A stretch of 64,000 nt of DNA. Origin: Escherichia coli. GTDB lineage: Bacteria; Pseudomonadota; Gammaproteobacteria; Enterobacterales; Enterobacteriaceae. The first letter of the stretch is position 1, and every line of letters starts with the position of its first letter. A model generated the notes under the pieces. The model did no database searches. It was given only the letters and a program-made list of their open reading frames with translations, and was not told the DNA's origin. Position numbers and translations under genes: made by a program. This document shows, in pieces, positions 11,190 to 61,659 of this stretch. Location: assembly GCF_041248615.1 (NCBI RefSeq), contig NZ_CP158426.1. One strand, given 5' to 3'.

Positions 11190-11324
11190 TGCTTTCTCCA
11201 CCGGTTGGCTAAGACGTTTTCTGATAAAGACGCTATTTTGTCACAGCCACGGCGAGAATGAACCCGTCTGGTGTAATATCGCTGGCGATCCCTTGCTATA
11301 TGGTTAAAAAAGGAACCAGAAAGG

Positions 11325-12104
11325 ATGCTTTTTACACTGAAAAAAGTGATTGGCAATATGTTGCTGCCACTTCCGCTGATGTTGTTGATTATTGGCGCTG
11401 GCCTGGCGCTGCTGTGGTTTAGCCGTTTTCAAAAAACCGGGAAGATTTTTATTAGCATTGGGTGGCTGGCGCTCTTGTTATTGAGTTTGCAACCGGTAGC
11501 CGACCGCCTGCTGCGTCCCATCGAAAGCACCTATCCGACATGGAATAATTCGCAAAAAGTGGACTATATCGTGGTGCTCGGAGGTGGTTATACCTGGAAC
11601 CCGCAGTGGGCACCAAGCTCGAATTTAATCAATAACAGTCTGCCCCGCCTGAATGAAGGTATTCGCTTATGGCGCGAAAATCCGGGATCAAAACTGATCT
11701 TCACGGGAGGCGTAGCAAAAACCAATACGGTGAGTACAGCCGAAGTAGGTGCCCGAGTTGCGCAATCGCTGGGCGTGCCGCGCGAGCAAATTATCACTCT
11801 GGATTTGCCAAAAGATACCGAAGAAGAAGCTGCGGCAGTGAAACAGGCGATTGGTGACGCCCCTTTCCTGCTGGTGACATCCGCGTCTCATTTGCCGCGG
11901 GCGATGATCTTTTTTCAGCAGGAAGGGTTAAATCCGCTGCCAGCCCCGGCGAATCAGTTGGCCATCGACTCGCCGCTTAATCCGTGGGAACGGGCAATCC
12001 CTTCTCCGGTCTGGCTGATGCATAGCGATCGTGTTGGCTATGAAACGCTTGGCCGCATCTGGCAGTGGCTGAAAGGTCCGTCAGGCAAGCCACGGCAAGA
12101 GTGA
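11325..12104 (+). CDS. elyC: envelope biogenesis factor ElyC (YcbC), DUF218
   Basis: 259 aa ORF with N-terminal TM segments; synteny. Confidence 0.8.
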   Translation: MLFTLKKVIGNMLLPLPLMLLIIGAGLALLWFSRFQKTGKIFISIGWLALLLLSLQPVADRLLRPIESTYPTWNNSQKVDYIVVLGGGYTWNPQWAPSSNLINNSLPRLNEGIRLWRENPGSKLIFTGGVAKTNTVSTAEVGARVAQSLGVPREQIITLDLPKDTEEEAAAVKQAIGDAPFLLVTSASHLPRAMIFFQQEGLNPLPAPANQLAIDSPLNPWERAIPSPVWLMHSDRVGYETLGRIWQWLKGPSGKPRQE

Positions 12105-12974
12105 TTTTGATGCCAGATCGAAGTTGCGCCGACTAAATCGTCCGGTATTAACCAGTTGCGCAACTTCATCCCATAACACATACAACCAACGCCGCCAGAT
12201 GAACGACTCCGCCACTGGCGCGCGTTGCAGGTAGCTCCAGAGCAAATCTTCCGCCAGAGAATTATCCATTAGTCGGAACAGTTCGTATTCTCGCGGTGCC
12301 CAAAGCATTAGTCCCGGCCCGACCATCGCCAGTAACTGATCGCTGCGCGAATCTTTCAGCATGCTGCGTAAACAGAAGTTACCGTGAATCAGCACACAAT
12401 TGTCGTTAAAGCCTTCAAATAATGCCGGAAGACATTCGCGAGTACGAAACAGGATCCGCTTATCCTGCATCGTTAGACCGGTGTTATTGAACTGATTGAG
12501 CGTGGTCCATAGCACTTCAACATGTTGCCGGTACCATGAGGGCCAGAAATTTTCCTGAGTATTGTCGACCGCGCCGACGCAACCGCGACTGTCCTGACGG
12601 TGCCAGGCCAGTAAGGCTTCAACGATTTGATCTTTGAGCTGTTCCCAGCGTTCTGGTGTTCGGGCTGGTGCCTCCACCGAAACACCACGCATCCGCTCCA
12701 GTAGCAGGACATCGGGGCCGGGGTGTTCTTCATGCGTCATCACACCATAAATAGTCGGCATACGGACAGTTCCACTTCTTGCCAGCATGGTGGTTTTCCA
12801 TGCCAGTTGTCGGGCTTTTCCGGGCGTACTAAAGCTTCTTGCCATTAACGGCATTGGGTTTCCCTGGCTGTCATACAAAGCCCACAACGCCGTATCCGCT
12901 TTTTCATTGACGCACTCAATACGACTGAGTTTTTCGCCCAGTAAATGGCTTAATTCGGCACGCAGCTGTTCCAT
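12081..12974 (-). CDS. ycbJ: putative kinase-like protein YcbJ
   Basis: 297 aa ORF; synteny; 3' end overlaps elyC 3' end by 24 nt. Confidence 0.8.
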   Translation of the reverse strand: MEQLRAELSHLLGEKLSRIECVNEKADTALWALYDSQGNPMPLMARSFSTPGKARQLAWKTTMLARSGTVRMPTIYGVMTHEEHPGPDVLLLERMRGVSVEAPARTPERWEQLKDQIVEALLAWHRQDSRGCVGAVDNTQENFWPSWYRQHVEVLWTTLNQFNNTGLTMQDKRILFRTRECLPALFEGFNDNCVLIHGNFCLRSMLKDSRSDQLLAMVGPGLMLWAPREYELFRLMDNSLAEDLLWSYLQRAPVAESFIWRRWLYVLWDEVAQLVNTGRFSRRNFDLASKSLLPWLA

Positions 12975-13127
12975 TCAGATTACCCTCATAAAAGCTACTG
13001 CTTTCATAATGAGCGCCAATATAAAAGATGTCACCTGAATGAGATCAATTGTTGAAAAGAAAAATTGAGGAAAATCGTAACGGTACGACACTCCTCCCAA
13101 AATTGGCTGGAGTGTCGTGAAGTGAAA

Positions 13128-42296: not shown

Positions 42297-42466
42297 AATG
42301 GCTCACTCAAGCTTGCTCACGATTGATTCCAGTAACAAACCGTATTGTGTAATTATTTCTATAGCAGTTCGCTATATAGGCTTGTATACATCGAATAATT
42401 TGAAAATCAAAGAGATAGGTAGATTTTCACTCGAAAGTAGTATTACGTGTAAGTGAGGAGTAATTA

Positions 42467-42480
42467 TTGTTCGGTATCAA
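42467..42480. promoter_or_regulatory. candidate FNR-box-like dyad upstream of dmsA
   Basis: TTGTTcggtATCAA matches TTGAT-N4-ATCAA with one mismatch; position relative to the true dmsA transcription start not verified. Confidence 0.3.
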
Positions 42481-42592
42481 AGGGAGACAAAAAAAGCGCC
42501 CGCAGGAGATTTAACGGTACTTACTCCTCTTGCTGATTTCCTTATTTTTCAATAAGTAAACAAAAACAAGGGGAGCAAATTATCACAAATAA

Positions 42593-46427: not shown

Positions 46428-46636
46428 GCAGCAAACACGATACCAACGCACGCAGACCAGGCAAAGAGGCGCGTCACCATATCGCCGTAATGCGCAACCT
46501 GCTTATGAGTGAAATCGACGATTTTGTGGCAGGCCTGGGGCAACCGGGCGAACCAGCAACACCAGGCCAGATACACAGGGAATTACGCCGCCGCGTGGAA
46601 AACGTCGTGGATTACGTCATAAACCCGAACGACTGA
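46424..46636 (+). CDS. hypothetical protein (70 aa)
   Basis: ATGA-overlap coupled to preceding ORF (start MSSKHDTN). Confidence 0.4.
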   Translation: MSSKHDTNARRPGKEARHHIAVMRNLLMSEIDDFVAGLGQPGEPATPGQIHRELRRRVENVVDYVINPND

Positions 46637-46675
46637 CGGGAACATGGCGAGCGTCAGATGACACACGCAGGGCAC

Positions 46676-47158
46676 TTATCGGGAAAAACCGATCGTAATG
46701 GCAGCCATCATCTTTTCAGCGAAAGAGAGAGATTCACGATGACTGATATTCAGAGACATACAGGCTTTGTTGTACGCCACATTTTCCATGCATTCCAGGA
46801 CAGGAGAGTCATGCATCTCAAGCTCTGGAAGGCGTGCCAGCAGAGCTTCCGTACTGAGGAGGGCGCTTTTGGTAATCAACTCATTGTAGCGATGGGCATG
46901 CTCACTCGCCGCCTGCGCACGTTGCCCGAAACGACATATGAAATTACAGGCTCCGAGAACCACCACCACTGCCCCAAGCACCCAGCCGAAATGCCAGCCG
47001 GCTACGATGAACGCACCCGCCGCAAGGATCAAAATGTTGATGATCGCATCAAGGCGACGATTGAATACCGCCGCGATGCGCTCCAGCCAGTAGCTGTACC
47101 AGAGACGGAACATGACCTCATCCCGTTCTCTCGATTTTTTACGTTGGTTGTTTTGCAT
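46676..47158 (-). CDS. hypothetical membrane protein, opposite orientation within early region (160 aa)
   Basis: ORF with basic N-terminus and long hydrophobic segment AIINILILAAGAFIVAGWHFGWVLGAVVVVLGACNFI; RBS-like gaggga upstream; the overlapping plus-strand ORF 46658-47293 is His-rich and judged a shadow. Confidence 0.45.
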   Translation of the reverse strand: MQNNQRKKSRERDEVMFRLWYSYWLERIAAVFNRRLDAIINILILAAGAFIVAGWHFGWVLGAVVVVLGACNFICRFGQRAQAASEHAHRYNELITKSALLSTEALLARLPELEMHDSPVLECMENVAYNKACMSLNISHRESLSFAEKMMAAITIGFSR

Positions 47159-47392
47159 GGTGTTTTATCCCTCATCGTCATCGCTCTGCCCCTAATCAGC
47201 GCAGAGTGCAGGGTAACCTGGCTCGTGGAATTTTTGCAGCCAGACATCTTTACCCCCGGGCGTGTTGAACAAAGTGTCCGCCAGATCCACTGAACGGCGG
47301 ATTCATCAATGCTAACACGCCCTTCTTTTCCGGTTGAAGGCGAAAAAACCGGACCATTACCCCGACACAAAACAGAACAACGGAGAACAACT

Positions 47393-47947
47393 ATGCCCGC
47401 ACTTAAACCTATGGGTGTATCAGGTGTACCACCGAAGCATGTCAGAGCCTGGACACAACAGGAAGATGCTCTACTGGTCGGTTTATACCCCTCCCACACC
47501 GTACCAGAACTGACAAAACACTTTCAGAGAACCGGGCCAGCAATACGAAGCCGCATCCGTCTTTTGCTCTCTCAGGGGGTTATCCACACCAAACAACCCC
47601 CCCTGAATACAAAAGAACTCAACACGCTCATCAGGAATCGCCACACAAAAACCATCCGGGAACTCGCGAATGAACTGGGGCGCTCGACATCCACGGTGGG
47701 ACTGAACCTGAGAAAAAGAGGGTACCGGTTCAGGAAATACGGGGAACTCCACCACAGAGCCAGATACAGCGATCACCTGGTGGAGTTGGTAACTGAACTG
47801 CGCGATGAACAGGGGATGACATTCAGCGAAATCAGAAAGTACATCCGGGACATGGCCGGGATATCCCTTAAAAGATGGGTCCTCGCCCGGCTTTACGCAC
47901 GATATACCGCCGCTGACACCGTGCTTTGCGAACTGCTACCGGACTGA
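47393..47947 (+). CDS. hypothetical protein, possible DNA-binding (184 aa)
   Basis: ORF 47309-47947; start placed at MPALKPMG with RBS ggag upstream; basic, helix-rich segments. Confidence 0.4.
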   Translation: MPALKPMGVSGVPPKHVRAWTQQEDALLVGLYPSHTVPELTKHFQRTGPAIRSRIRLLLSQGVIHTKQPPLNTKELNTLIRNRHTKTIRELANELGRSTSTVGLNLRKRGYRFRKYGELHHRARYSDHLVELVTELRDEQGMTFSEIRKYIRDMAGISLKRWVLARLYARYTAADTVLCELLPD

Positions 47948-48036
47948 GTAACCACTATGCACACACAAAAAAACCGCTTGCCATGCCGCAATCAGTCAGG
48001 TTACATTTCCGCTGCACCTCATAAAACGGGTGCCGG

Positions 48037-48260
48037 GATTGCAACCCCCGCTGACAACTACAGCGCACAACCGCGCCAGCGGTTTTTTTGTGCGTACCGT
48101 ATCGCCACGTCTTTTTCGCGCCAGAATTATGGCGGGGCGTATGGGGCCGACTTCGGTCGGGCCGGTTTCTGTAGTTGCCGGTGGTTGCAACCCTGTACGT
48201 CTCGCCACCCAGAATTGCAACCTCTGGATGGTGAGTTTTCAAAACTTGCAACTACAGAGG
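48037..48260. repeat. non-coding repeat cluster (TTGCAAC and CAACTACAG motifs, with hairpins)
   Basis: TTGCAAC at about 48040, 48185, 48216, 48247; CAACTACAG at about 48054 and 48250 with inverted copy tgtagttg at about 48171; ccgacttcggtcgg tetraloop-type hairpin at about 48145. Confidence 0.5.
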
Positions 48261-48267
48261 CCACACC

Positions 48268-48492
48268 ATGGCAAACCGCAAACAACAGCGCGCATACGCT
48301 GCGCGTCGTCACATCCAGACTGAAATCAACCGCAGACTTTTCCGCGCATTCCGCGTCGCGCATATCATGCACATCAATATGCTGCATGAGCGCAGCCACG
48401 CACTGTCAAACATGTATTCCGCCGCTGTATTCAGCTACCTGGCGGATGACCTGCGCGAGCTGCAGGACCTCATTAACCAGCACCACCACTAA
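48268..48492 (+). CDS. hypothetical protein (74 aa)
   Basis: ORF with RBS agagg upstream, downstream of repeat cluster. Confidence 0.4.
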   Translation: MANRKQQRAYAARRHIQTEINRRLFRAFRVAHIMHINMLHERSHALSNMYSAAVFSYLADDLRELQDLINQHHH

Positions 48493-48560
48493 TCAACATC
48501 CCGGAGCCATCCCGCCCCCGTACGCGGGAGGCTTCCGCACGTCCGTTTCCGGAGGTTCTC

Positions 48561-48974
48561 ATGAAGAGCGTTAAGGGACTTTCAGATATTCAGGATTTTT
48601 TTAACTGGATGTGGGCGGTGGATCCACGCCTCGCTTCCCGTCTCAATGACCTGCACGACTATTACCGCCGCGCCTGTAAACAGGCAGCCCGCAGCGCTGC
48701 CACATACGGGGATTTTTCCTTCACCGTTGACGACCGTTACCGCGTGGATGTCAGAGACCAGAACCACAGCCTGGAGCTGGGCCTGTTCCACATCAACGGG
48801 TGCGACAGCAGCGTTATCAGCTGGTCATCGTCAGAAATGGTGCTCGTTCTGGAAATGACCACCCACAGCGTGGTCGTGAAAGGGATTAAAACAGCAGAAG
48901 ACTTTATCGCTGAATACCAGCGCCTTCTTGTGCTGTACCGGGCTGCATTTCAGAAGGCAACAGCAGGGGAGTAA
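48561..48974 (+). CDS. hypothetical protein immediately upstream of gene A (137 aa)
   Basis: ORF ending 5 nt before gene A start. Confidence 0.45.
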   Translation: MKSVKGLSDIQDFFNWMWAVDPRLASRLNDLHDYYRRACKQAARSAATYGDFSFTVDDRYRVDVRDQNHSLELGLFHINGCDSSVISWSSSEMVLVLEMTTHSVVVKGIKTAEDFIAEYQRLLVLYRAAFQKATAGE

Positions 48975-48979
48975 GCGGA

Positions 48980-51490
48980 ATGAGCCATCACCACACGCAC
49001 CTGGCGTACCCGTGGAACGCCCCGCTGCCGGTTATTGATCCTGAGACATTCGGCAGAGCATTACCGCAGAAGCCAACCGCATTACAACGGGCAATCCGTG
49101 ACTACCTCACCGAAGACATTCGCACTGAGGCCCGGCTGGATGAAGAAACCGTGGCCTTCCTGACAACCACGGACAAAGGTAAGCAAATTAATTCACACCT
49201 TCACCGGGACGAAGAGCGGCAGATAAGGCTGGATAAGCTGGCACGACACAGACGCGAAAATCCGCCAACGGCGGTATCGGAGGCGATAGCCGAACTTCGC
49301 ACCCTGCCCTCGTTTCTTGCCAGTGTGTTGATCCGTGATCTGGCACGACTGAACCGGAAACAGCAAAGTGCCCGCAGTGAAGGTGTAAAAAACAACAGCG
49401 CATACGTGGCCGATAATTTCGTTCGCCGTGGACTGCGTGCGCGCCTGAAACGTATTGAAAGGGTTAACGACCGCTTTGCAACGCCGGCATTCAAAACCAC
49501 CGTCGTGCGCCATCGCCTTGAAGAACTGCTCACACTGCCGCAACTCACCCGTGACGAAATCCAGCGCATCGCCACACTGACAGCCCAGGCATTCGCCGCA
49601 GAATTTGAACGCATATGTGATGAAGTTCTTGAACGGACAGGCAAGGATAATGACAGCCCGGTTATCTGGCTGCTGGCCTACCAGAAGGTGGCACGCACAG
49701 CCTTAATTCTGGGCATGGTCCCGCCATACTGGCCGGAACTCGAAATCAGGCACAACCGACGCACACCGCCGGACCCTGAACGGGTTCCGGGTGCGGTACT
49801 GCGCATCACCTGCGCGACCTGGTGGAACAACCAGTTACGCCACGTCGCCGATCTCTGGCGGGAGGAGTTACTGCGCGCCGCCGGCAGAGTGTCACGTAAA
49901 CAATCCCCCTATATCAGCCATGAGTCACTACTGGAGTTCCGCGAGAAGCGCCAGCGCACCTGTGACTTTCTCAAAAGCTGGGATATTGAAAACGAAGACG
50001 GCGAGCGCCTGAGTCTGGAGGACGTGTACTGGGCTGGCCTGGGTAATCCACGCAACCGCCGCAATGAAATGATGGTCTGCGTCAGAGGGATGGAGATGGT
50101 GGCCGAATTACGGGCTGACGTCGCATTCTTCATCACAGTAACCACCCCTTCCCGCTTTCACAGCGTGAACGAGAACGGCAGCCTGAACCCGAAATACAAC
50201 GGTGCCACAGTACGAGATGCCAGTGATTATCTGGTTTACGACTTCTTCGCAGCCGTAAGAAAAAAAATAAAAAAAGAGGGGCTGGGCTGGTACGGCGTGC
50301 GAACCGCTGAGCCACACCATGACGGCACGCCACACTGGCATATGCTGGTATTCACTTCCCCGGAGAACGCAGAGCGCATCATCGAAATTATGCGCGAAGC
50401 AGCAATTAAATCAGATCGCCACGAACTGGGGGACGATATTTCACCGCGCTTTAAATGCGAGAAGATAGACCCGGAAAAAGGCACACCGGCAAGCTATATC
50501 GCAACCTATATCGGTAAGAACCTGGACGCCAGCGCTTTCCACAACAATGATCCGAAAACCGGAAAACCTTACGTTGATGAGGAATCCGGGAAAACCATGG
50601 CGGAAACCGTGGAGAACGCCATTGCCTGGGCAAGCCTTCACCGCATCCGTCAGTTCCAGTTTTTCGGCATTCCGCCCCGCCAGGTATGGCGTGAACTCCG
50701 CCGCCTTGCAAGCCAGATGGAGCGCAACCCGGCATCACCGAAGCACCTCGATCATGACGATATTGACGCCATTATGGCTGCCGCAGATGTGGGATGTTTT
50801 GCCACCTACATCATGAAACAGGGTGGTGTGCTCATTCCGCGCAACCAGTATCTGGTCCGCACCGCATACGAAACCGCAGACGAAGCCAACGACTACGGTG
50901 AATTCCCTCAACGTATCTACGGAATCTGCGCCCCGTCGCTCGGAGAGCGGTACACCATATGCACCCATCCGGACGAGTGGAAACTGGTTAAAAAAGAAAC
51001 AACACCAGACAACCGCACGGGCGAGGGTTTTGACCTTCATGGCGACCCCGTCGCCCCTTGGACTCGTGGCAATAACTGTCCCCGGGATGAAAAAACAGAC
51101 AATCACGGACCAGAAAACAGGCAGGACCCCGGACGACTGACGCTTCCCGAAGAGAACCTGGAAAGCTGGCTGAATACGTTAAGCAGGGGCGATCGGAGAA
51201 AACTGCGTAATCAGATTAAAAATCAGCCGTCGGGCGCAAAAACCGGACAAAACGACACCACACCGGCATCTGACACCCCTGTAAGGGTGGGGATTGTCGT
51301 GCCTGCGGATACCGCGACGGACACGCAAATCGCCCGCGAACTTGATGCGCTGGGTGTGCAGTTGCCTGACGCGGCCATCATCTCCGTGCGTAACGGTGCC
51401 CGTGTGCGTCTGGATAACGGGGGAACAGCGTACTGGGATGAGTCAGCCCGTCACATCATCACAGAGCAGCCAGTGGAGGCGGGAGCATGA
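48980..51490 (+). CDS. A: replication initiation endonuclease, P2 gpA-like (rolling-circle)
   Basis: 836 aa ORF in the gene A position; HUH-type GTPHWHMLVF motif. Confidence 0.8.
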   Translation: MSHHHTHLAYPWNAPLPVIDPETFGRALPQKPTALQRAIRDYLTEDIRTEARLDEETVAFLTTTDKGKQINSHLHRDEERQIRLDKLARHRRENPPTAVSEAIAELRTLPSFLASVLIRDLARLNRKQQSARSEGVKNNSAYVADNFVRRGLRARLKRIERVNDRFATPAFKTTVVRHRLEELLTLPQLTRDEIQRIATLTAQAFAAEFERICDEVLERTGKDNDSPVIWLLAYQKVARTALILGMVPPYWPELEIRHNRRTPPDPERVPGAVLRITCATWWNNQLRHVADLWREELLRAAGRVSRKQSPYISHESLLEFREKRQRTCDFLKSWDIENEDGERLSLEDVYWAGLGNPRNRRNEMMVCVRGMEMVAELRADVAFFITVTTPSRFHSVNENGSLNPKYNGATVRDASDYLVYDFFAAVRKKIKKEGLGWYGVRTAEPHHDGTPHWHMLVFTSPENAERIIEIMREAAIKSDRHELGDDISPRFKCEKIDPEKGTPASYIATYIGKNLDASAFHNNDPKTGKPYVDEESGKTMAETVENAIAWASLHRIRQFQFFGIPPRQVWRELRRLASQMERNPASPKHLDHDDIDAIMAAADVGCFATYIMKQGGVLIPRNQYLVRTAYETADEANDYGEFPQRIYGICAPSLGERYTICTHPDEWKLVKKETTPDNRTGEGFDLHGDPVAPWTRGNNCPRDEKTDNHGPENRQDPGRLTLPEENLESWLNTLSRGDRRKLRNQIKNQPSGAKTGQNDTTPASDTPVRVGIVVPADTATDTQIARELDALGVQLPDAAIISVRNGARVRLDNGGTAYWDESARHIITEQPVEAGA

Positions 51491-51918
51491 CGCGATTTTG
51501 CTGCACCATGCAGCGCCCACAGTTTGAGGCCATCATGCGCCAGCGTATGCCGGTGCTGACACTGTTCAGGCCTGCCACAAGGCCACAACCGGGCGACGAG
51601 CTGGAAATCACGATAGTCAGCCCCGATCGCACCACGGAGACCACCATCGCCGACATACTCAACAGGCGGCCGGGCAGCGAGAGCCATAGCTGGACTGTCG
51701 TCATTCGTCCGCGCCGTTCGCCGGAGGAACCGGAGCCGTGCACGCCTGCCGGGAAAATCATGCAGAGATATCACGAAGAGCGGACACGCAGGCACAACGG
51801 CGGACTGGCCAGAACACTGAACACAGTCAATCACAAGGCCGCGCTGGCGCGAATGGTCTTTTCACCACAACGCAATTCATTCGCCAGACCAGCACAGAAC
51901 GGGAGGAAACAACAGTGA
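51487..51918 (+). CDS. hypothetical protein (143 aa), translationally coupled to gene A
   Basis: ATGA overlap with A stop; RBS ggagg upstream. Confidence 0.4.
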   Translation: MTRFCCTMQRPQFEAIMRQRMPVLTLFRPATRPQPGDELEITIVSPDRTTETTIADILNRRPGSESHSWTVVIRPRRSPEEPEPCTPAGKIMQRYHEERTRRHNGGLARTLNTVNHKAALARMVFSPQRNSFARPAQNGRKQQ

Positions 51919-52109
51919 GCAGAATATTACTTTTTCTGCTGTTTTTCGCGCCATTCGCACAATCAGCCACGCCGAACTGCGTAGCGAAAAAGAGCAACAC
52001 CGTTGTCATTGTCCAGTGTGATGACGGCACGGTAACAATCACCGACTCGAGCAAAGGAAGCGTCATTGTCTGCCGTAAAGAGAAACCCTGTCAGCGAACC
52101 GAACTTTGA
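51915..52109 (+). CDS. hypothetical small secreted Cys-containing protein (64 aa, GTG start)
   Basis: GTGA overlap with preceding stop, RBS gggagga 7 nt upstream; signal-peptide-like SRILLFLLFFAPFAQSA then 4 Cys in about 45 residues. Confidence 0.4.
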   Translation: MSRILLFLLFFAPFAQSATPNCVAKKSNTVVIVQCDDGTVTITDSSKGSVIVCRKEKPCQRTEL

Positions 52110-52120
52110 AGGAAAAATAT

Positions 52121-52435
52121 ATGAACAGGAAACAGAAGCAGGAACTGAAAGGCTTCTTACGTAAAGAAATTGCCAGGCTGGAAGATGTGGAATCTCAGTC
52201 ATCAGATATTCCATTCGGAATGGATATCAACGACGCCTGTATGCTCCAGGTATACCGCATAGCTCAGGCTGCACTACAGGCAAAACCGTCAGATGGACTG
52301 GTTAGAGCAGTACGTTTCTATGAACTGGTAAAGCGTGAGAATCCGCCAGTCGAAACCGGAGCATGGCAAGACGCTGTTGACTGGGTGCTCAAAGAGGCTT
52401 GTCAGGTTGTAAACACTGGCATCAAAGGAGACTGA
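52121..52435 (+). CDS. hypothetical protein (104 aa)
   Basis: ORF 52106-52435; start at MNRKQKQ with RBS gaagga; first gene of a coupled three-gene set. Confidence 0.45.
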   Translation: MNRKQKQELKGFLRKEIARLEDVESQSSDIPFGMDINDACMLQVYRIAQAALQAKPSDGLVRAVRFYELVKRENPPVETGAWQDAVDWVLKEACQVVNTGIKGD

Positions 52436-52436
52436 T

Positions 52437-52646
52437 ATGGCTATTGCCGCAAGTTACACCATGCATCTCTATTGTGATTGTCGCCAGTGTACAAATGGTA
52501 AATATCAAACGCCAGACTTCGGTGAATATATCGGTACGTCATGGACTGGCTGTGCAAAAGAGGCGCGTAAGGATGGCTGGCGAATAAGCAAAGACAAAAC
52601 TCGTGCTTTTGCGCCCGGGCATAAAGTTTTGAGGATTAACAAATGA
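52437..52646 (+). CDS. hypothetical small Cys-containing protein (69 aa)
   Basis: Starts 2 nt after previous stop; CDCRQC...C pattern suggests a metal-binding knuckle. Confidence 0.45.
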   Translation: MAIAASYTMHLYCDCRQCTNGKYQTPDFGEYIGTSWTGCAKEARKDGWRISKDKTRAFAPGHKVLRINK

Positions 52647-53044
52647 CCACTATAACCAAAGAGCGACTACTGACAATCAGGCAGTGGCGCGAAACATACG
52701 GACCTGGTAGCAACGTTGTACTGCCAGCCGAAGAAGCGGAAAAACTGGCACGGATTGCTTTGGCATCGCTGGAAGCAAAACCAATAGGTGCTTTCCACAT
52801 TGCAGAACAGCAGGTCGATGGCACAAGTGACTACATCAAGGATGGGGAGTACCGCTTGCTGACATCTGAAGAACAAAAGATAGCCCAACTTTTAGGCGAT
52901 GCATGGAACCTGTATTTTACATTGCCAGTTGAGCATCCAATGGGTAGAGATGAATTTTGCCGGGCAATTCATCATTGCCAAAATATGGTGTTGGCACGCC
53001 CTGCCATCAGGGCGCTGGCCAGTAAGGGGCAAGGCTATAAATAG
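52643..53044 (+). CDS. hypothetical protein (133 aa)
   Basis: ATGA overlap with previous ORF; followed by terminator. Confidence 0.45.
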   Translation: MTTITKERLLTIRQWRETYGPGSNVVLPAEEAEKLARIALASLEAKPIGAFHIAEQQVDGTSDYIKDGEYRLLTSEEQKIAQLLGDAWNLYFTLPVEHPMGRDEFCRAIHHCQNMVLARPAIRALASKGQGYK

Positions 53045-53045
53045 A

Positions 53046-53077
53046 TGAGCAAAACGCCCTCCTCCAGGGCGTTTATT
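53046..53077 (+). terminator. rho-independent terminator after the coupled gene cluster
   Basis: aaacgccctcctccagggcgttt hairpin followed by atttc. Confidence 0.65.
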
Positions 53078-53081
53078 TCAA

Positions 53082-53170
53082 TGCACAATAGTGCACAAAT
53101 TTGCACAATTTTTTTGAACGACTTTTTGCCCTTCCGGCCCGTGTGGCGTCTGGATCCGTCGGGGATCCGT
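53082..53170. promoter_or_regulatory. phased direct repeats (operator or iteron-like)
   Basis: TGCACAA at 53082, 53092 and 53102 (exact 10-bp phasing); GGATCCGT twice at about 53151 and 53163. Confidence 0.45.
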
Positions 53171-53534
53171 GCGTGCACGAAAAAAGGCCTTTTTCTGCGC
53201 GCAGGTGACGGGGGAACAGCCCGCGTTTCAGGGGGTAAATAGCATTCCCTGAACGATGTTGCAGCGACACAACAGAATGGCTGTATTTCTCACGCTGAGC
53301 GTAAAAAAGACGTAAAAGCTTGATTTGATGGGGGTGAAAGATAAGGCCGTCAAAATCGCACTGAGGCAGCGAGAATATGTCGTCAGAGTTGCGGGGTTGC
53401 GTAAGCATCCGCCCGGCGATGATGGCTACAAGGTTGGAGATGTTGTGAAATTATCTGAAGGAATAACCAGCTTGCAGGAGAACCCGGGCAAAGTCAGAAT
53501 AGCGGCAGGCATCAACTCAAAAGAGGATAATGTC

Positions 53535-53634
53535 ATGAGCCACTTTAATGATTTATGCCAGATCAATCGTGAAGCTGAAGAAAAACGCGCTGAGGCAGCT
53601 CAAATTTTGCGGGATGAAGCGGCAAGGCTGATTG
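53535..53634 (+). pseudogene. 5' portion of a phage cargo gene interrupted by the IS21-family element
   Basis: RBS aagagga 7 nt upstream of ATG at 53535; the reading frame continues in phase with ORF at 56221-56625 once the IS is removed. Confidence 0.4.
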
Positions 53635-53829
53635 ATTGCGTATTTTCATGAAAGGAGATCACTCAATAACTTCCATCGAGATCGGGTAATAACATTTGAA
53701 CAGATCGCTGAATAACATCGATGGAGATCACTTTTGACTCATTTTGTTATTCAGTGATCTCCATCAATGTTATTGGAACTTCACAGGTGTGTTGATCTGT
53801 ATCTTTTGCCATTCCGGTAAAGGATACCT

Positions 53830-55371
53830 ATGCCAACAGTTCCAATTTCTATGAGAAAACTTAAAGAAATTCTTAGGCTTAAATACGGTGTTGGACTCAG
53901 CCATCGACAAATTGGTCGTAGTCTTGCAATCTCCCCTTCCGTTGTATCCAGATATGCTAATCGGGCGGCTCAACTTGGCATAAAGCAGTGGCCCTTACCT
54001 ACAGGATGGGATGATACAAAACTAAAACATGCGTTCCTTCAGACCCAGGTTAAGATGAAGAAGCACTCTCTGCCTGACTGGGCTACAGTACACCGGGAAC
54101 TGCGTAATAAATGCGTGACGCTGCAGCTACTCTGGGAAGAATACTGTGAGCGTAATCCAGGCGGTTTTTACAGCTATAACCATTACTGCCGGATGTACCG
54201 TGAATGGCTCAAAACCACTTCACCATCAATGCGTCAGGTACATAAAGCTGGCGAAAAACTTTTCGTTGATTACTGTGGACCTACCGTTGGCGTTACCGAC
54301 CCTGAGACCGGAGAAATAAGAACTGCTCAGGTCATCGTAGCTGTTCTCGGGGCATCAAGTTACACATGGGCAGAGGCCACCTGGTCTCAGCAGCTTGAAG
54401 ACTGGGTGATGAGTCATGTTCGCTGCTTCCAGTGGTTGGGTGGCGTTCCTGAACTTGTTGTTCCGGACAATCTGAAAAGCGCCACATCCAGGGCATGTAA
54501 GTATGATCCTGACGTTAACCCTACCTACCAGCAGATGCTTGAGCATTATAATGTCGCAGTTTTGCCTGCGCGGCCACGTAAACCGAAAGATAAAGCCAAA
54601 GCTGAAGTTGGCGTTCAGGTTGTTGAACGCTGGATCATGGCCCGAATCAGGCATGAGATCTTCTACAGCCTTGCATCGCTTAATCAGCGCATTCGGGAGT
54701 TGCTGGAAAGACTGAATAACAAAATAATGCAGAAGTTGGGTTATTCACGTGCAGAACTCTTCATCCAGCTTGATAAACCCGCACTGAAGCCTCTTCCTGA
54801 AGCCAGTTACAGTTACACCCTGGTGAAGAAAGTCAGAGTTCATGCCGATTACCACGTGGAAATCGACAAACATTACTACTCGGTTCCATGTTCGCTGTTA
54901 GGCCAGCAACTGGAAGCATGGATCTCCGGAGAACTGGTAAGACTCTTCAATCAGGGGCAGGAGGTTGCTGTGCACCCGCGCAAGCGTACTTATGGCTACA
55001 GTACCCGCAACGAGCACATGCCTGAAGCTCATCGACAGCATGCCACCTGGACGCCAGAGCGTCTTCTGGAATGGGCGGGGCACATAGGCAGTGAAACTCA
55101 TAGTTATGTGCTTCATATACTGAACTCTCGTCCACATCCGGAACAAAGCTATCGCTTCTGCCTTGGACTCCTGAACCTTCATAAAAAATACAGTAAAGCC
55201 AGACTTAATGCAGCATGTGCAAGAGCTCTGAAAACAAAGGTATGGCGTCTGTCAGGTATTAAATCGATCCTGGAAAAAGGTCTGGATAAACAACCTGTTC
55301 AGGATCCAAAACCAGATCTGTTATCCACGATGGAACACGAAAACGTACGCGGCAGTGAGTATTACCACTGA
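53830..55371 (+). CDS. istA: IS21-family transposase IstA
   Basis: 513 aa ORF; N-terminal HTH (LSHRQIGRSLAISPSVVSRY) and integrase-like core. Confidence 0.85.
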   Translation: MPTVPISMRKLKEILRLKYGVGLSHRQIGRSLAISPSVVSRYANRAAQLGIKQWPLPTGWDDTKLKHAFLQTQVKMKKHSLPDWATVHRELRNKCVTLQLLWEEYCERNPGGFYSYNHYCRMYREWLKTTSPSMRQVHKAGEKLFVDYCGPTVGVTDPETGEIRTAQVIVAVLGASSYTWAEATWSQQLEDWVMSHVRCFQWLGGVPELVVPDNLKSATSRACKYDPDVNPTYQQMLEHYNVAVLPARPRKPKDKAKAEVGVQVVERWIMARIRHEIFYSLASLNQRIRELLERLNNKIMQKLGYSRAELFIQLDKPALKPLPEASYSYTLVKKVRVHADYHVEIDKHYYSVPCSLLGQQLEAWISGELVRLFNQGQEVAVHPRKRTYGYSTRNEHMPEAHRQHATWTPERLLEWAGHIGSETHSYVLHILNSRPHPEQSYRFCLGLLNLHKKYSKARLNAACARALKTKVWRLSGIKSILEKGLDKQPVQDPKPDLLSTMEHENVRGSEYYH

Positions 55372-55382
55372 TACGGGATCCA

Positions 55383-56132
55383 ATGATGAATCATCTTTAC
55401 GAACAACTGACCGCACTTAAACTCACCGGCTTCCGTGATGCGCTTAAAAAGCAACTTGCTCAGCCGGGCACATACCAGGAGCTGGGCTTCGAAGAACGCC
55501 TGTCATTACTGACAGCAGAAGAACTAACCTGCCGTGAAAACAGGAAGGCAGAGCGTCTGATCAAACATGCACGGTTCAGACTTAATGCTGAGTTATCAAA
55601 GCTGGATTATCGTAACAATAGAGGGCTGGACAGGGCCCTCATCCGTTCACTCAGTCAGGGAAACTGGTTAACCCTGAAACAAAATATTTTACTGACCGGG
55701 GCCACCGGCAGCGGTAAAACGTTCCTGGCATGTGCACTTGGTCATAATGCCTGCCGACAGGGATACAAGGTCTACTATTATCGCCTTAAAGCGCTGATGG
55801 AACAGTGCTATCAGGGGCATGCTGATGGAAGATACAGCAAACTTTTGACCAGGCTGAATAATAGCGATCTGCTGCTTCTGGATGACTGGGGGCTGGAACC
55901 TCTCTCATCAGAACAGCGTAGCGACCTGCTGGAAATAGTGGATCTGATGTACCAACGAGGCTCAATCATCGTAGTGAGCCAGTTGCCGGTGGAAAACTGG
56001 TACAAAATGATCGGAGACTCCACACATGCGGATGCCATCCTAGATCGACTGGTTCATGGCAGTATCAAGATCGAACTTAAAGGAGAATCAATGCGGAAAA
56101 TACAATCTCCGTTGACCGAAGGAGATCAGTGA
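55383..56132 (+). CDS. istB: IS21-family helper ATPase IstB
   Basis: 249 aa ORF with Walker A GATGSGKT and Walker B LLLLDDWG. Confidence 0.85.
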   Translation: MMNHLYEQLTALKLTGFRDALKKQLAQPGTYQELGFEERLSLLTAEELTCRENRKAERLIKHARFRLNAELSKLDYRNNRGLDRALIRSLSQGNWLTLKQNILLTGATGSGKTFLACALGHNACRQGYKVYYYRLKALMEQCYQGHADGRYSKLLTRLNNSDLLLLDDWGLEPLSSEQRSDLLEIVDLMYQRGSIIVVSQLPVENWYKMIGDSTHADAILDRLVHGSIKIELKGESMRKIQSPLTEGDQ

Positions 56133-56220
56133 AGGTAATTTAAAAACGGTTCTGTGAAAGTGACACGAACCGATCTCCATCGATGTTACTCACCGATCTC
56201 CTTCACGGTAATACGCAATT

Positions 56221-56625
56221 GATTTCTATGAAGAATGGCTGGGGCTTCCATCCATGTACTGGGAAGACGATGATGGCGACCTGCACCGCTACGTGGAGAC
56301 AGGCTTGCCATGTAAGACAGCGGCGGATTTTAGTCCTCTTTCAGTCCACAATATCGCATCTGCACCAGACAATATTTTCCGCATGGCCGTGCGAACCTGG
56401 GTTAAGTCATCTGACAGCAGCTACCCGGTAAGCGTGGTTATTGCACTTGAATTATATTCAGTAGATGCGGAACGGGTGTCTCTGAGAGTCCGGGTGGAAG
56501 ACGATATTTCTGTTCGCGTATTTATCAATAAACCCAGCGAAGAAGCCTGGGGCGATGTTGTTATGCACATGAAAAAGCACATCGCTAATCACCTGAAAAA
56601 GCGAGCGCCATCAGCACTTCGTTAA
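56221..56625 (+). pseudogene. 3' portion of the IS-interrupted phage cargo gene
   Basis: Open frame from the IS right junction (DFYEEWLGLPSMYWEDDDGDLHRY...) to stop at 56625, in phase with the upstream fragment. Confidence 0.4.
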
Positions 56626-56691
56626 GCAGAGCTGGAGAGTCGGGGCATAAATTTTTTATGCCCCGGCGAAGCAGCAGACAAGCGAAGCGCG

Positions 56692-57747
56692 TCAGGATAT
56701 GGGCTGGGTGTCTAACAGTGCGTAAGGGTTAAAACGGATCACCTCTTCGCCCAGCCAGTCGTTGACGTGTTTCATTGCTTCCATGACGGGCATCAGTTCG
56801 TTAATGGCAAACACACGGGCTGCCTTCTCCACATCCCCGAATGACCCCTTCTCACCCGGCATGGCCCCCATCAGCTGCGGCGGTACACGGTGCACGGACA
56901 GCACATCATCACGCGATGCAGCCTTGACGTTCATGAACTCATCCTTTGCGGTGATTTGCTGAAACGGCAAAATCTGTACGCCATCCTTACCACCTCCCGC
57001 CGCGTGGATGAGCAGATTTTTAAACGCCCCGCCACCACGCGCGCTTTGCAGTGTTTCCCGCAGTTTTTCCATGCTTTCACGGTCAACCTGCGCCGCACCG
57101 ATGTAGACAATACAGCCCGCGTGTGAGCCGTTATCGTAGTAGAGCTTGCGGAAGATATCGGCGGAATGTGACAGGCTGGCAGACAGCAGGCCGCCCAGGT
57201 AATCCGGCATCCCGTAAATCTCCTGGTTGATATCAGGATTCATCAGGTGGCATATCGTCCCCTCACGAAAGCGGTACTCTTCCTGTCCTTCCTGTATATA
57301 CCACCATGATTTCATATCGCTGCCACGTCGCATGTATTTCGCCAGCGCCCGGCGCAGGGCCAGCGGTTCGCCAAGCATGTTGCGCCGCAGCTCAAGACAG
57401 GCATTACCGAACACAAACCAGTCCATCGCCACCCCGGCGAACTCCTGGCGGGACAGCAGAGGATGTGGAATATAGCAGCCCAGCAGCACATTACGTTTGA
57501 AGCTGAGCGCCGACTGGTGCCAGGACGTCTGGCGGGCAGCCCGTGCCAGTCCGTACCAGTCAACGGGCGTTTCAAACCACCGCCCGTTGTCGGCGCAGTA
57601 CATGCTGTCCAGCAGGTCGGCCCCTGACAGCCGGTAAGGTCCTTCAAACGTGAAGGCACTCAGTGTCGGGTCGCTTCGCAGGGAATCCGCAAGGCTGCCC
57701 TGCGCTGCGCGGGCGTTCGTACGTCGTTGTTTATTTTTTCTGCTCAT
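56692..57747 (-). CDS. Q: phage portal protein, P2 gpQ-like
   Basis: 351 aa ORF, leftward, stop overlapping the downstream terminase gene; position and size match P2 Q. Confidence 0.8.
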   Translation of the reverse strand: MSRKNKQRRTNARAAQGSLADSLRSDPTLSAFTFEGPYRLSGADLLDSMYCADNGRWFETPVDWYGLARAARQTSWHQSALSFKRNVLLGCYIPHPLLSRQEFAGVAMDWFVFGNACLELRRNMLGEPLALRRALAKYMRRGSDMKSWWYIQEGQEEYRFREGTICHLMNPDINQEIYGMPDYLGGLLSASLSHSADIFRKLYYDNGSHAGCIVYIGAAQVDRESMEKLRETLQSARGGGAFKNLLIHAAGGGKDGVQILPFQQITAKDEFMNVKAASRDDVLSVHRVPPQLMGAMPGEKGSFGDVEKAARVFAINELMPVMEAMKHVNDWLGEEVIRFNPYALLDTQPIS

Positions 57748-59498
57748 CAGAACTCCGTAACACTGAAGGGGGCGGCATCATGTTCACCGCCGACAGGTTC
57801 GTTGATAACGGCCAGCATGGTGGCCCATGCAAGATCGCCATGGCTTACGCCTCTTGCGCGATCTGTTTCGTAGGTGATAAATCCGGCCTGCGTTTTTGTT
57901 TTGCGTACCGCGTTAAAGGCGCTCACCAGTTCGCGCTCGCTGCGGTCGTACTCCCACCGCCCGGCGCGCATGAGCTGCAGCATCTTCAGAACCAGCGTGC
58001 GCTTTGATGACAGGGTGAAGGTGTAGGGAATGGCTGCCGGAAAAAAGCGCTTCACAATCTGATACACCGCATCCCCGTGACCGCCGGTTACGTCAATACC
58101 GATATGCTCAACGTTATAGCGAAAGGTGAACTCTTCAATCACCTTCGCCTGCGCCTCAAACTCCAGCCCCTGCACCCGCCGCGTCTCCACGGTGCGAAAA
58201 CGCCCGCCCGGTACGGCTGGCGGCACCACCACGACAACCGCCCCGCTGTCACCGTTCCCGCTACTGCCGTTGGCGTCGTACCCAATCCACACAGGGCGGT
58301 TCCCCATCGGACGCGGTGCAAACGGCTTCCAGTCCGGCCACTCGTCGTATCCGTCAACACCGCAGCCAATCAGGATATTCAGGTTAAATGCCGATTCCCC
58401 TTCGCGAGCAAATTCACACATGTAGAGATTGCGGAACTCGTCTTCAGTGTTATTGCGCCGGATTTTGTCAATGTTGGTTAACGTCCATCCCTGACTGACC
58501 ACATCTTCCAGCGTCACAATTTGCCGCCAGATATAGTCAGGACAGATAAGGCCGTTATGAAGCGCATTCCAGCTCACATCAAAATGCTGACGTTTATGAG
58601 TACGAAGCCCTTCATTCCAGTGATCGCCGTTCCAGTATGCATACGCCTCATGTGTTTCACTTGATGGCGTGGAAAAATAGGTACACCGCAAACCATCCAG
58701 CGTTGCCATAGCAGCAGCCACCTTGCGCAGCTCTGCGAAACGCCCCGTCCAGAAAAACTCATCAAAATACAGATTCCCTGTGTACGCTTGCGCGGTGGCC
58801 GCAGAAGTGCCGAGAAAATGCAGCTCTGCACCGTTGGAGAGGATGACTTTATCGCCCCCTTTCAGTTCCACATCAACTTCAGATGCAGCCTTCTGAATAA
58901 TGCTTTTAAACTGGAGCGCCTGACGACGAGACGCAGACAAAAAAATCTGGTTACGCTGGTAAGGTTGTGCCACATCGTCACGCAGCGCCATCAGCAGCGC
59001 TTCCTGCGCAAAATACCAGGTCGCCCCAATCTGGCGGGATTTCAGGATCATCCTGTCAGTAATTCCGGCACGCTCACAGGCACCGATAGCATCAAGCCAT
59101 TTGCGCTGGTGTCCGGCCAGCCTGTCGGTAATTTTTTCCCGCAGCGCCGCGATCTGTTCCGGCGTGAAATGATTTTTGTGTTTTTTCGCCCGGCCTTTCT
59201 TTCCTGTTGCCGTCTCATCCGGCAGACCGTCATGCAGCTTTTTAAGCTGACGGGTCAGCAAATCAATTTCCTTAAAGTCCCCGCCTGTTTTATTCTGTTT
59301 TTCCGTGAGCTGAATGAGTCGCGCATCCATGGACTGCGTGACACGCTGAACCGGGGGCGTCTCATCCCACTGGTCGCGTTTTTTCCACGAATGGATCGTG
59401 TTCTGGTTGATACCCATAAGGCGGGAAATTTCCGCAACAGGGTAACCCTGCCAGTACAGCTGGCGTGCCCGCTGGCGAACAAATGTATCCTGAATCAT
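57747..59498 (-). CDS. P: terminase large (ATPase) subunit, P2 gpP-like
   Basis: 583 aa ORF, leftward, divergent from O; size and position match P2 P. Confidence 0.8.
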   Translation of the reverse strand: MIQDTFVRQRARQLYWQGYPVAEISRLMGINQNTIHSWKKRDQWDETPPVQRVTQSMDARLIQLTEKQNKTGGDFKEIDLLTRQLKKLHDGLPDETATGKKGRAKKHKNHFTPEQIAALREKITDRLAGHQRKWLDAIGACERAGITDRMILKSRQIGATWYFAQEALLMALRDDVAQPYQRNQIFLSASRRQALQFKSIIQKAASEVDVELKGGDKVILSNGAELHFLGTSAATAQAYTGNLYFDEFFWTGRFAELRKVAAAMATLDGLRCTYFSTPSSETHEAYAYWNGDHWNEGLRTHKRQHFDVSWNALHNGLICPDYIWRQIVTLEDVVSQGWTLTNIDKIRRNNTEDEFRNLYMCEFAREGESAFNLNILIGCGVDGYDEWPDWKPFAPRPMGNRPVWIGYDANGSSGNGDSGAVVVVVPPAVPGGRFRTVETRRVQGLEFEAQAKVIEEFTFRYNVEHIGIDVTGGHGDAVYQIVKRFFPAAIPYTFTLSSKRTLVLKMLQLMRAGRWEYDRSERELVSAFNAVRKTKTQAGFITYETDRARGVSHGDLAWATMLAVINEPVGGEHDAAPFSVTEF

Positions 59499-59569
59499 TT
59501 CTCCCCCTCATGTGATTCAGGCAGTTTACTCACCCCTTACAGGCCTCCTGCCATGCCCGGTGTTGTCGG

Positions 59570-59593
59570 CATTCGCTTACAACAAACGCACTT
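59570..59593 (+). promoter_or_regulatory. candidate late-promoter activator site (TGT-N12-ACA dyad)
   Basis: TGTTGTcggcattcgcttACAACA in the P/O divergent intergenic region, about 60 bp upstream of the O start; matches the Ogr/Delta-type element of P2 late promoters. Confidence 0.55.
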
Positions 59594-59652
59594 TGTCTGT
59601 CCCTGCCCCGTTTTGCCATCATGAGACAAACGATCATCACGAGGGCCCGACA

Positions 59653-60489
59653 ATGCCTGAACAGAAAAAAACATCCCGTAAAACATTCCGCGTGGCCGTT
59701 TCCGGTCCCACCGCAGACGGTCGCGAAATCAGTGCCGCAGATTTGCGCGCGGCGGCCAGTAACTTCAACCCTGAGATTTACGGCGCACGCGTGAACGTGG
59801 AGCACTGGCTTTCACCGGTTCCGTCCAGTGAATTTTCCGCCATGGGTGATGTGACGGCACTGAGCACAGAAGAAATCACCGAAGGTCCGCTGGTCGGTCG
59901 TACTGCGCTGTATGCGGAAATCGAACCCACCGACCGCATGAAAAATCTGGTCTCCCGGGGTAAGAAAATTTACTCCAGTATTGAGCTGGCACGAAATTTC
60001 ACCCCTACGGGCACCCCGTATCTTATTGGCCTTGCCATGACAGACACCCCGGCAAGCATCGGCACGGAGCGTCTTCAGTTCGCCCTGCAGCAGCGCCGTT
60101 CGGTCATGACCTTCAATAATCAGCAGACGGAAGCACCGATGTTCTCTGACGCCATTGAGGCTGAAGTGATCGAACTGACGGAGCGCCGCAGCGAGGAAGG
60201 TGCGCAGTGGCTTAACCGCGTGATGAACATGATTGGGCGAGGACGCAGGGCTGACGACACCCGGTTCTCCCGCATTCATGACGCCGTTGAGGGGATAGCC
60301 TCATCGCATGCCGACCTTCTCGACCGCTTCAGTGCACTGGAATCGCGCCATCAGGCAGACAGACAGAAAATCGCCACCCTGTCCACTGAGCTGGCAGAGC
60401 TGAAAAACAGACTGCGCGGACTGGACGCTGATCAGGAAAGTCGTTTTACGGCAACCGGCGGGCAGTCCAGACAACTGGCTGACTACTGA
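59653..60489 (+). CDS. O: capsid scaffolding protein, P2 gpO-like
   Basis: ORF 59512-60489; start placed at MPEQKKTSRK with RBS; 278 aa; first rightward late gene. Confidence 0.75.
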   Translation: MPEQKKTSRKTFRVAVSGPTADGREISAADLRAAASNFNPEIYGARVNVEHWLSPVPSSEFSAMGDVTALSTEEITEGPLVGRTALYAEIEPTDRMKNLVSRGKKIYSSIELARNFTPTGTPYLIGLAMTDTPASIGTERLQFALQQRRSVMTFNNQQTEAPMFSDAIEAEVIELTERRSEEGAQWLNRVMNMIGRGRRADDTRFSRIHDAVEGIASSHADLLDRFSALESRHQADRQKIATLSTELAELKNRLRGLDADQESRFTATGGQSRQLADY

Positions 60490-60517
60490 CAGAAATAACC
60501 ACAAGAGGTGATAACCG

Positions 60518-61657
60518 ATGAATCTGATCATGAGCGATGCCGCGCGGGCCGAGCTTTTTGCTTACCAGGCACAACAGGCGGAGATGAATAACATCACGAT
60601 ATCTGCGCTCTCCTCCCGCTTTTCGGTACAGCCGGCAGTGCAGCAGAGATTTGAAAACGCATCAAAGGAAAGCCATGATTTTCTTCAGAAAGCCAACAGC
60701 ATTGGTGTGACAGAGCAGAAAGGTGAAAAGGTACTCCTGGACACCACCGGGCCGGTTGCGCGCACGAACAGCAGTTATGACGGTACAAATCGTCGTAACC
60801 CGCTGAATGTGGTGGACATGAAAGCGCGACGCTATGAGTGCGAGCAGGTGAACTACGACACCTTCATCTCCTACCCTCAGCTTGACATGTGGGCCGGACA
60901 CCCTGACTTCCAGCTGCGTGTGAGTCGCCAGATTGCCAGACAGGTGGCACTTGATCGCATCATGACAGGTTTTAACGGTACGCACCATGCGGAAGTCTCG
61001 GATATAAAAAAACACCCGCGACTTGAGGACGTCAATAAGGGGTGGCTGCAGGATATCAGGGACCAGGCCCCGCAACGCGTCATGAAAGACGTGATGCTGA
61101 CTGCGCGCAATATGGACAATTCGGTGGCATACACAGGCAGATACGCCAATCCCGATGCACTGGTCCAGGATGCACGCTCATCCCTGCTTGACGAATGGCA
61201 CAAGGACGCAGACGACCTCGTTGTCATCATGGGGCGAAACCTCTTTAACTCCCTGCGCCTGCCGGTCCTGAACAGTATCAGCATGCAGAATGCGAATGCC
61301 GAACTGCTTGCCGGACAGCTCATTGTGTCAACGCGGACCATTGGCGGCCTTGATGTGTACCTTGCGCCATTTTTCCCGGCTCAGTCAATGCTCATCACCT
61401 CATTCAGCAACCTGTCGGTTTACTGGCAGAAGGGGTCCATGCGTCGTCTCATGAAGGATGAGCCCGAATACAACCGTATCGCCATCTATCAGTCCGTTAA
61501 CGACTGCTATGTGGTTGAGGACCATGGTAAGTGCGCACTGATTGAGAATATCAGCTTTGCCACATATGACCATGACGCGCCGGACTGGTACCGGGAGGGC
61601 ATAAAAGCACTGTCAGCGCAGGCTGAAGACAAGGATGCAGGGGAAGAGGAGGATTAA
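60518..61657 (+). CDS. N: major capsid protein, P2 gpN-like
   Basis: 379 aa ORF following O. Confidence 0.75.
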   Translation: MNLIMSDAARAELFAYQAQQAEMNNITISALSSRFSVQPAVQQRFENASKESHDFLQKANSIGVTEQKGEKVLLDTTGPVARTNSSYDGTNRRNPLNVVDMKARRYECEQVNYDTFISYPQLDMWAGHPDFQLRVSRQIARQVALDRIMTGFNGTHHAEVSDIKKHPRLEDVNKGWLQDIRDQAPQRVMKDVMLTARNMDNSVAYTGRYANPDALVQDARSSLLDEWHKDADDLVVIMGRNLFNSLRLPVLNSISMQNANAELLAGQLIVSTRTIGGLDVYLAPFFPAQSMLITSFSNLSVYWQKGSMRRLMKDEPEYNRIAIYQSVNDCYVVEDHGKCALIENISFATYDHDAPDWYREGIKALSAQAEDKDAGEEED

Positions 61658-61659
61658 CC

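Follow-up and report, generated by a model that had tools for sequence, protein, structure and literature searches.

The window, a 64,000-nucleotide (nt) stretch of Escherichia coli DNA, carries two convergent protein genes that end inside each other, elyC (also called ycbC) on the + strand and ycbJ on the − strand. The features at their junction are listed below.

11325..12104, + strand: elyC (ycbC) coding sequence (CDS), 259 a.a., DUF218 envelope biogenesis factor (ORF, Pfam, RefSeq and K-12 annotation)
12081..12974, − strand: ycbJ CDS, 297 a.a., putative phosphotransferase of the YcbJ family with an APH fold (ORF, Pfam, annotation, AF2)
12081..12104, both strands: dual-coding overlap of 24 nt in antiparallel codon register (sequence)
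12102..12104, + strand: TGA stop codon of elyC, which is the TCA codon for Ser291 of ycbJ (sequence)
12081..12083, − strand: TGA stop codon of ycbJ, which is the TCA codon for Ser253 of elyC (sequence)
12108..12110, + strand: second in-frame TGA of elyC, two codons past the first (TGA TTT TGA), mirroring S-K-S in YcbJ

The + strand letters of the overlap, TCAGGCAAGCCACGGCAAGAGTGA, are common to both genes, and are translated as S-G-K-P-R-Q-E-stop at the end of ElyC and, from the − strand, as S-L-L-P-W-L-A-stop at the end of YcbJ. The codons of the two genes are exactly antiparallel, with position 1 facing position 3, and the TGA stop of either gene is therefore a TCA serine codon in the partner. 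Both are genuine protein genes, and their frames run to the annotated stops. ElyC matched Pfam DUF218 with an E value of 2e-28, and YcbJ matched Pfam APH with an E value of 2e-6. ElyC is an envelope factor that is required at low temperature and is linked to the metabolism of undecaprenyl-phosphate and the enterobacterial common antigen. The phenotypes of ΔelyC were complemented in trans in a CPRG envelope screen (PMC3879167), and YcbJ has been found at the peptide level by mass spectrometry (PMC6857472). Thus, CDSs on opposite strands share 3′-end nucleotides and both ORFs are genuine, as in a convergent overlapping gene pair.

A sequence-only reading of this DNA had described two genes ending inside each other, and its coordinates and gene names proved correct to the base when compared with the ORFs, the sequence and RefSeq. 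A RefSeq strain with 100% identity across 11200-13100 has elyC and ycbJ annotated at identical coordinates. The comparison with the K-12 annotation, which that reading had proposed as a check, revealed an identical 24-nt overlap in MG1655, where ycbJ occupies 971752..972645 (+) and elyC occupies 972622..973401 (−). It had also expected conservation in E. coli as probable, which was borne out by this shared architecture and by the elyC-ycbJ locus itself, which 5,422 of the 5,426 complete E. coli genomes carry with an identity of at least 95%. In a megablast of 11200-13100 against complete E. coli genomes, four of the 5,433 places were on plasmid-typed records, and at least one complete genome contains two copies of the elyC-ycbJ segment.

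[quoted passage not shown] The elyC/ycbJ pair resembles these in that two annotated protein genes of opposite orientation overlap at their 3′ ends, and in an apparent origin by stop-codon movement with the overlap kept between species. There is no essential difference from them; the elyC/ycbJ phase is exactly antiparallel, with TGA opposite TCA. The ycbJ/elyC overlap is also mentioned explicitly in a 2025 preprint (10.1101/2025.02.11.637708). The overlap is real, ordinary, previously annotated and discussed in the literature, and hence not new; as one among dozens of E. coli overlaps, it has small import for biology at large. Other tight convergent junctions in positions 1-46000 of the window, where the annotation is collinear, are aspC/gloC (50 nt) and ycaC/dmsC (35 nt). 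The convergent junction between a pseudogene fragment and ycaM measures 0 nt, and this pair also stands in the published excludon list, under ycaM-ycaN.

The three phases possible at the elyC/ycbJ junction would give overlaps of 24, 56 or 154 nt, and the actual phase is the shortest. The codons read as opposite-strand stops in this phase (TTA, CTA and TCA) account for 2.3% of the codons in 19 local genes, so that an antisense frame would stay open for ~44 codons on average. The length of 24 nt is unremarkable by chance, and it is the conservation across species that exceeds chance.

To describe this conservation, we scanned one genome per species and listed the 80 closest YcbJ loci (YcbJ identity, 81-99%), 79 of which could be scored. 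The genera included Escherichia, Salmonella, Citrobacter, Enterobacter, Kosakonia, Leclercia, Lelliottia, Atlantibacter and others. In these 79 loci from other species, the conservation of both reading frames extends to their stops. The overlap is 24 nt in 67 of the 79 species-level Enterobacteriaceae loci drawn from the closest 80. Five loci have a 21-nt overlap: in four of them, a ycbJ leucine codon, TTA or CTA, provides the elyC stop one codon earlier, and in the fifth (L076) YcbJ is one residue shorter. The overlap is 36 nt in two loci, where ycbJ has lost its TGA and reads on to the next stop. The other five have no overlap; four are Citrobacter loci with inserted DNA, and in the remaining one, from Escherichia, elyC stops earlier.

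The four Citrobacter loci (L007, L015, L019 and L030), which from their names we take to belong to the Citrobacter freundii group, contain additional DNA immediately after the ycbJ TGA, which leaves gaps of 35-117 nt between the genes. The inserts are located at L007:1364-1480, at L019:3895-3987, and just past position 3894 in both L030 and L015. The exact REP core CGYCTTATCMGGCCTAC was found only in the L007 insert, as an inverted pair, and in the L019 insert, and the element in these two is presumably a REP/BIME. The L030 insert has a related CTGATAAG motif and no exact REP core, and no REP-like sequence, including the exact core, was identified in the L015 insert. A search of the window with the REP consensus pattern produced no copy. 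In all four insert loci, the C-terminus of ElyC is …LKG[S/A/R]EH (SEH, AEH or REH). In two of these four loci, the codon for Ser291 of ycbJ is no longer TCA but TCT or TCG. In Escherichia sp. MOD1-EC7003 (L004), an elyC TAG lying eight codons earlier adjoins the ycbJ stop, and the overlap is gone.

For more distant relatives, we used a representative-protein search combined with contig look-ups. The YcbJ homologue search reached no further than close relatives, at 86% identity or above, from which the overlap is not datable, and one locus (L091) was left out since its assembly is full of frameshifts. A Dryocola/Cedecea-type locus (L083; YcbJ identity, 73%) has a 21-nt overlap. The genes are separated by a gap of ~9 nt in L092 (YcbJ identity, 56%), by 30 nt in Plesiomonas shigelloides (L087, named through its membership in a 90%-identity cluster; YcbJ identity, ~40%) and by 107 nt in L088 (YcbJ identity, 32%). 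In L085 (YcbJ identity, 43%), the interval from ycbJ to cmoM contains no elyC, so that elyC has been gained or lost at that position. The gene order in L085:3001-4787 is msbA-lpxK-ycaR-kdsB-ycbJ-cmoM-mukFEB. In the Plesiomonas spacer (L087:2020-2066), a perfect hairpin of 11 bp (GGAATAACCGC-cagcgca-GCGGTTATTCC) overlaps the TAA stop of ycbJ; it may represent an ancestral bidirectional terminator that has since been lost in Enterobacteriaceae.

Since the distant relatives, including Plesiomonas, have spacers of 9-107 nt, the overlap is a derived state in Enterobacteriaceae. By this comparison, the convergent ycbJ/elyC pair is old, and the overlap, once gained, was lost again several times. The history probably ran as follows. 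The convergent pair would be old in Enterobacterales, at first with a short spacer. The spacer would have been lost in the ancestor of Enterobacteriaceae, with the elyC frame extending into the end of ycbJ and stopping at the first opposite-strand stop, namely the TCA of ycbJ Ser291 read as TGA. ElyC would thereby have acquired a tail of ~7 residues, which is an antisense translation of the C-terminal helix of YcbJ, SLLPWLA.

The amino acid sequences point to YcbJ as the protein that sets the shared nucleotides. The last invariant residue of ElyC is K250 (of 259), within …WQWLKG, and ElyC of Plesiomonas ends in …LKGKH. Beyond this residue, the Enterobacteriaceae tails follow the pattern S-G-[K/E/Q/D]-P-[R/G]-x-x, which is precisely the antisense of the YcbJ A-L-W-P-L-L-S codons, in which GCC yields Gly and TGG yields Pro. 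On the opposite strand, S-L-L-P-W-L-A is kept in YcbJ, and P-W-L is kept even in distant homologues. The synonymous third positions of ycbJ are the first positions of elyC within the overlap, and they vary by 0.6-1.4 bits, approximately as freely as those of the flanking codons. In the AF2 models, YcbJ 282-296 is a C-terminal helix predicted with confidence (pLDDT of the block, ~92; mean of the model, 92.1) and ElyC 251-259 is coil (pLDDT, 47). The ElyC model is only moderate (mean, 73.6; shallow alignment), and its low-confidence tail is thus weak evidence. Natural variants have the ElyC tail replaced, as in the four Citrobacter loci, or removed by the TAG in MOD1-EC7003. From these comparisons and models, the ElyC tail looks like a tolerated passenger peptide, with the amino acid sequence of YcbJ as the dominant constraint, and the last seven residues of ElyC are probably dispensable. 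A sequence dictated by YcbJ would also tell experimenters where recoding or tagging is safe.

The stop codons are the exception to this one-sided constraint. The ycbJ Ser291 codon is TCA in 74 of 78 loci, and in all four exceptions elyC stops elsewhere; the elyC Ser253 codon is TCA in 65 of 66 loci. As a control with the same phylogeny as Ser253, we used four other conserved serine columns of elyC encoded by TCN, in which TCA occurs in only 32/71, 4/71, 15/69 and 5/71 loci. In these alignments, the two stops are the one clear signature of dual constraint. The sole extra constraint would be that the third base of a serine codon in either gene is held fixed by the stop codon of its partner. The stability of the exact 24-nt architecture could reflect hidden selection beyond the two proteins.

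We next consider transcription past the stops, for which published Rho data and base composition provide the following features.

11806..12606, − strand: downstream comparison window of the published Rho call, with the peak at 12606 (K-12 972120)
12105..12254, + strand: C-rich, G-poor stretch 3′ of the elyC stop and antisense to ycbJ, a candidate Rho loading region

Coordinates were mapped by subtracting the K-12 coordinate from 984726. Adams et al. 2021 (PMC7815308, Supplementary file 2) placed a region of Rho termination within ycbJ, at K-12 972120 (+), with a Rho score of 5.47 and a p value of 5e-12. The reads upstream/downstream of this position were 135/18 in untreated cells and 192/140 with bicyclomycin; the resolution of these regions is low, with 800-nt windows and positions good to hundreds of nt. 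The call is on the ycbJ strand only, and none was reported for the elyC strand (PMC7815308). An earlier genome-wide Rho map, Peters et al. 2012, is cited in the same study. These data show, at coarse resolution, that Rho limits ycbJ-strand transcription that would otherwise run antisense into elyC. The drop at K-12 972120 may represent kdsB read-through ending early in ycbJ, and not termination at the junction. On the elyC strand, the C/G ratio in 12105-12254 is 1.67-1.71 (100-nt windows), compared with 0.7-0.8 just upstream, and it is 1.27-1.43 just 3′ of the ycbJ stop. The C-rich stretch after the elyC stop is suggestive, but not diagnostic, of Rho loading on untranslated RNA. Rho, acting on untranslated RNA inside the partner gene, would most likely end transcription past either stop; the data for this step are of low resolution on the ycbJ strand, and we infer it on the elyC strand. 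The junction resembles the systems in which Rho suppresses read-through and antisense transcription (PMC7815308) in that ycbJ-strand coverage falls in a bicyclomycin-sensitive way and, suggestively, in the C-rich, G-poor RNA after the elyC stop, but differs in that the position here is known within hundreds of nt and that the elyC strand has no reported call.

The earlier claim that transcription of one gene must read into the other stands. Either mRNA needs its own stop codon, and at least 24 nt are therefore unavoidably complementary between the elyC and ycbJ mRNAs. The ycbJ-elyC pair is among the 165 convergent excludons listed by ExcludonFinder, detected in half or more of 58 RNA-seq samples of MG1655 (PMC12288877, Table 1; the p19 and short-RNA data are described there in aggregate). 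The transcripts of these neighbors thus overlap, both according to the literature and by logical necessity. The further claim, that this overlap implies antisense interference, is not supported; the lineages separated by inserts and the spacer-bearing relatives show that the overlap is not required. Interference between elyC and ycbJ is possible, and any antisense effect would probably be weak and incidental.

A stronger proposal is that the pair is a functional excludon, in which ElyC and YcbJ expression would be coupled inversely by the complementary 3′ ends and the convergent transcription, through polymerase collision or RNase III, and this coupling would keep the overlap fixed. We consider this improbable. 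In its favor, excludons have been proposed as a regulatory class and the pair is listed among the convergent ones, the overlap is persistent across Enterobacteriaceae, and the convergent pairing is kept in distant Enterobacterales beside the envelope genes msbA, lpxK and kdsB. However, the excludon call is near-automatic for overlapping CDSs once both are expressed, and the YcbJ protein sequence together with the two stop codons fully explains the nucleotide conservation. The overlap has also been lost in five lineages and is replaced by 9-107 nt spacers in the relatives, and ycbJ-strand transcription is curtailed by Rho. In the score tables of the CPRG screen, ycbJ appears once (961), ycbC scores 5561 at one occurrence, and the orphan hit lists include ycbC only (PMC3879167). 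In the literature within reach, we found no report of reciprocal elyC/ycbJ regulation and, for this pair, no data on anticorrelated expression, on double-stranded RNA or on RNase III. The pair is like the listed excludons in that the transcripts of both genes overlap and in being explicitly listed itself (PMC12288877), whereas in classical excludons the antisense UTRs are long and mutually exclusive expression has been demonstrated; the certain overlap of elyC/ycbJ is 24 nt of CDS. A true excludon tying the ElyC output inversely to the kinase-like YcbJ, with Rho setting the depth of transcript invasion, is a longer shot still. If it were one, YcbJ and ElyC would be placed in one envelope pathway beside msbA-lpxK-kdsB. 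A fixed tail-to-tail overlap of two genuine genes, ordinary and not a dedicated regulatory device, is the reading that we regard as quite likely.

It is very unlikely that a conserved terminator, whether intrinsic or bidirectional, lies within the coding sequence at or near the junction and ends the transcripts almost at the stop codons. The one repeat at the junction that could suggest it is the following.

12066..12092, + strand: inverted repeat TGGCT (12066-12070)/AGCCA (12088-12092), not a terminator

This repeat is followed ~12 nt on by TGATTTT on the elyC strand, and the Plesiomonas spacer with its perfect hairpin would also fit the idea. However, a scan with a consensus terminator found nothing at the junction, and its regional matches were no commoner than in shuffled sequence; a scan for a hairpin plus a T-tract likewise found nothing credible there. 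Single-sequence folds of the junction gave z-scores of −0.7 and −0.3, and RNAalifold on a 35-species alignment gave −4.7 kcal/mol with a 17-nt loop and no compensatory pairs. The repeat, although conserved, is attributable to the Trp-Leu codons near both C termini on opposite strands (ElyC …QWLKG and YcbJ …PWLA), and the T-run to a Lys AAA codon. No stable GC-rich hairpin followed directly by a U tract, with or without the upstream A tract of a bidirectional element, was present at the E. coli junction. Bidirectional intrinsic terminators between convergent genes have reportedly been described by SEnd-seq (Ju et al. 2019), a study that PMC7815308 cites. The elyC/ycbJ locus is like these in being a convergent pair with a minimal junction, but a GC-rich hairpin between A and U tracts is absent in E. 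coli, and a spacer hairpin exists only in the Plesiomonas locus. No 3′ end is named for elyC or ycbJ in the Term-seq tables of Adams et al. 2021 (PMC7815308), and the SMRT-Cappable-seq supplements gave no match for their 3′ ends. The statement that the overlap leaves no room for terminators is therefore half right: there is no intergenic room, and no credible intrinsic terminator was found, but the partner gene can house terminators, and Rho, for which a ycbJ-strand region has been published, needs no intergenic DNA.

An annotation artefact, in which one gene ends earlier or in another frame and there is no true overlap, as the sequence-only reading had named as its own refutation, has a negligible chance of being right and was rejected: the final ElyC residues are poorly conserved and one Escherichia lineage stops elyC eight codons earlier, but the stop codons are unambiguous, the window has no earlier in-frame elyC stop, conserved residues (ElyC WQWLKG, YcbJ LLPWLA) fix both frames as far as the tails, and both TCA codons are frozen, so that both stops must be in use.

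The ordinary overlap of two genuine genes has a practical side, since deletion or tagging at the 3′ end of elyC or ycbJ alters the partner, which is a concern for work on ElyC and YcbJ. The standard Keio design is said to retain the final 21 nt of the deleted gene. Given this design, each of the elyC and ycbJ deletions would remove exactly the stop codon of the partner. The 2025 preprint attributes the likeness of the ΔycbJ and ΔelyC phenotypes to the inactivation of elyC in the ycbJ deletion (10.1101/2025.02.11.637708). The CPRG scores suggest that any loss of ElyC in ΔycbJ is not complete in every assay.

Several further features were observed in the window. One lies upstream of ycbJ.

13006..13034, − strand: promoter-like site, GTGACA, 17-nt spacer, CATTAT; a consensus match only, of a kind no commoner than in shuffled sequence

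In positions 46500-63000, the gene order is unlike that of the otherwise collinear strain JNEC-KY178, in which ftsK follows lolA. In a megablast, stretches of 0.5-1 kb in this region were 87-93% identical to P2-like phages (P88, Shae_phiSM), with a "derepression protein" among the matches, and Rfam matched the C4 antisense RNA at 48125-48212 (+) and isrK at 48014-48089 (+). Large + strand ORFs lie beyond C4/isrK, for example at 48980-51490 (836 a.a.). The region is probably a P2/P88-type prophage or satellite. Finally, Rfam found a full-length match to the enterobacterial sRNA STnc130 at 42387-42521 (+), with 125.8 bits against a gathering score of 55, which the collinear RefSeq annotation places between dmsA and serS.
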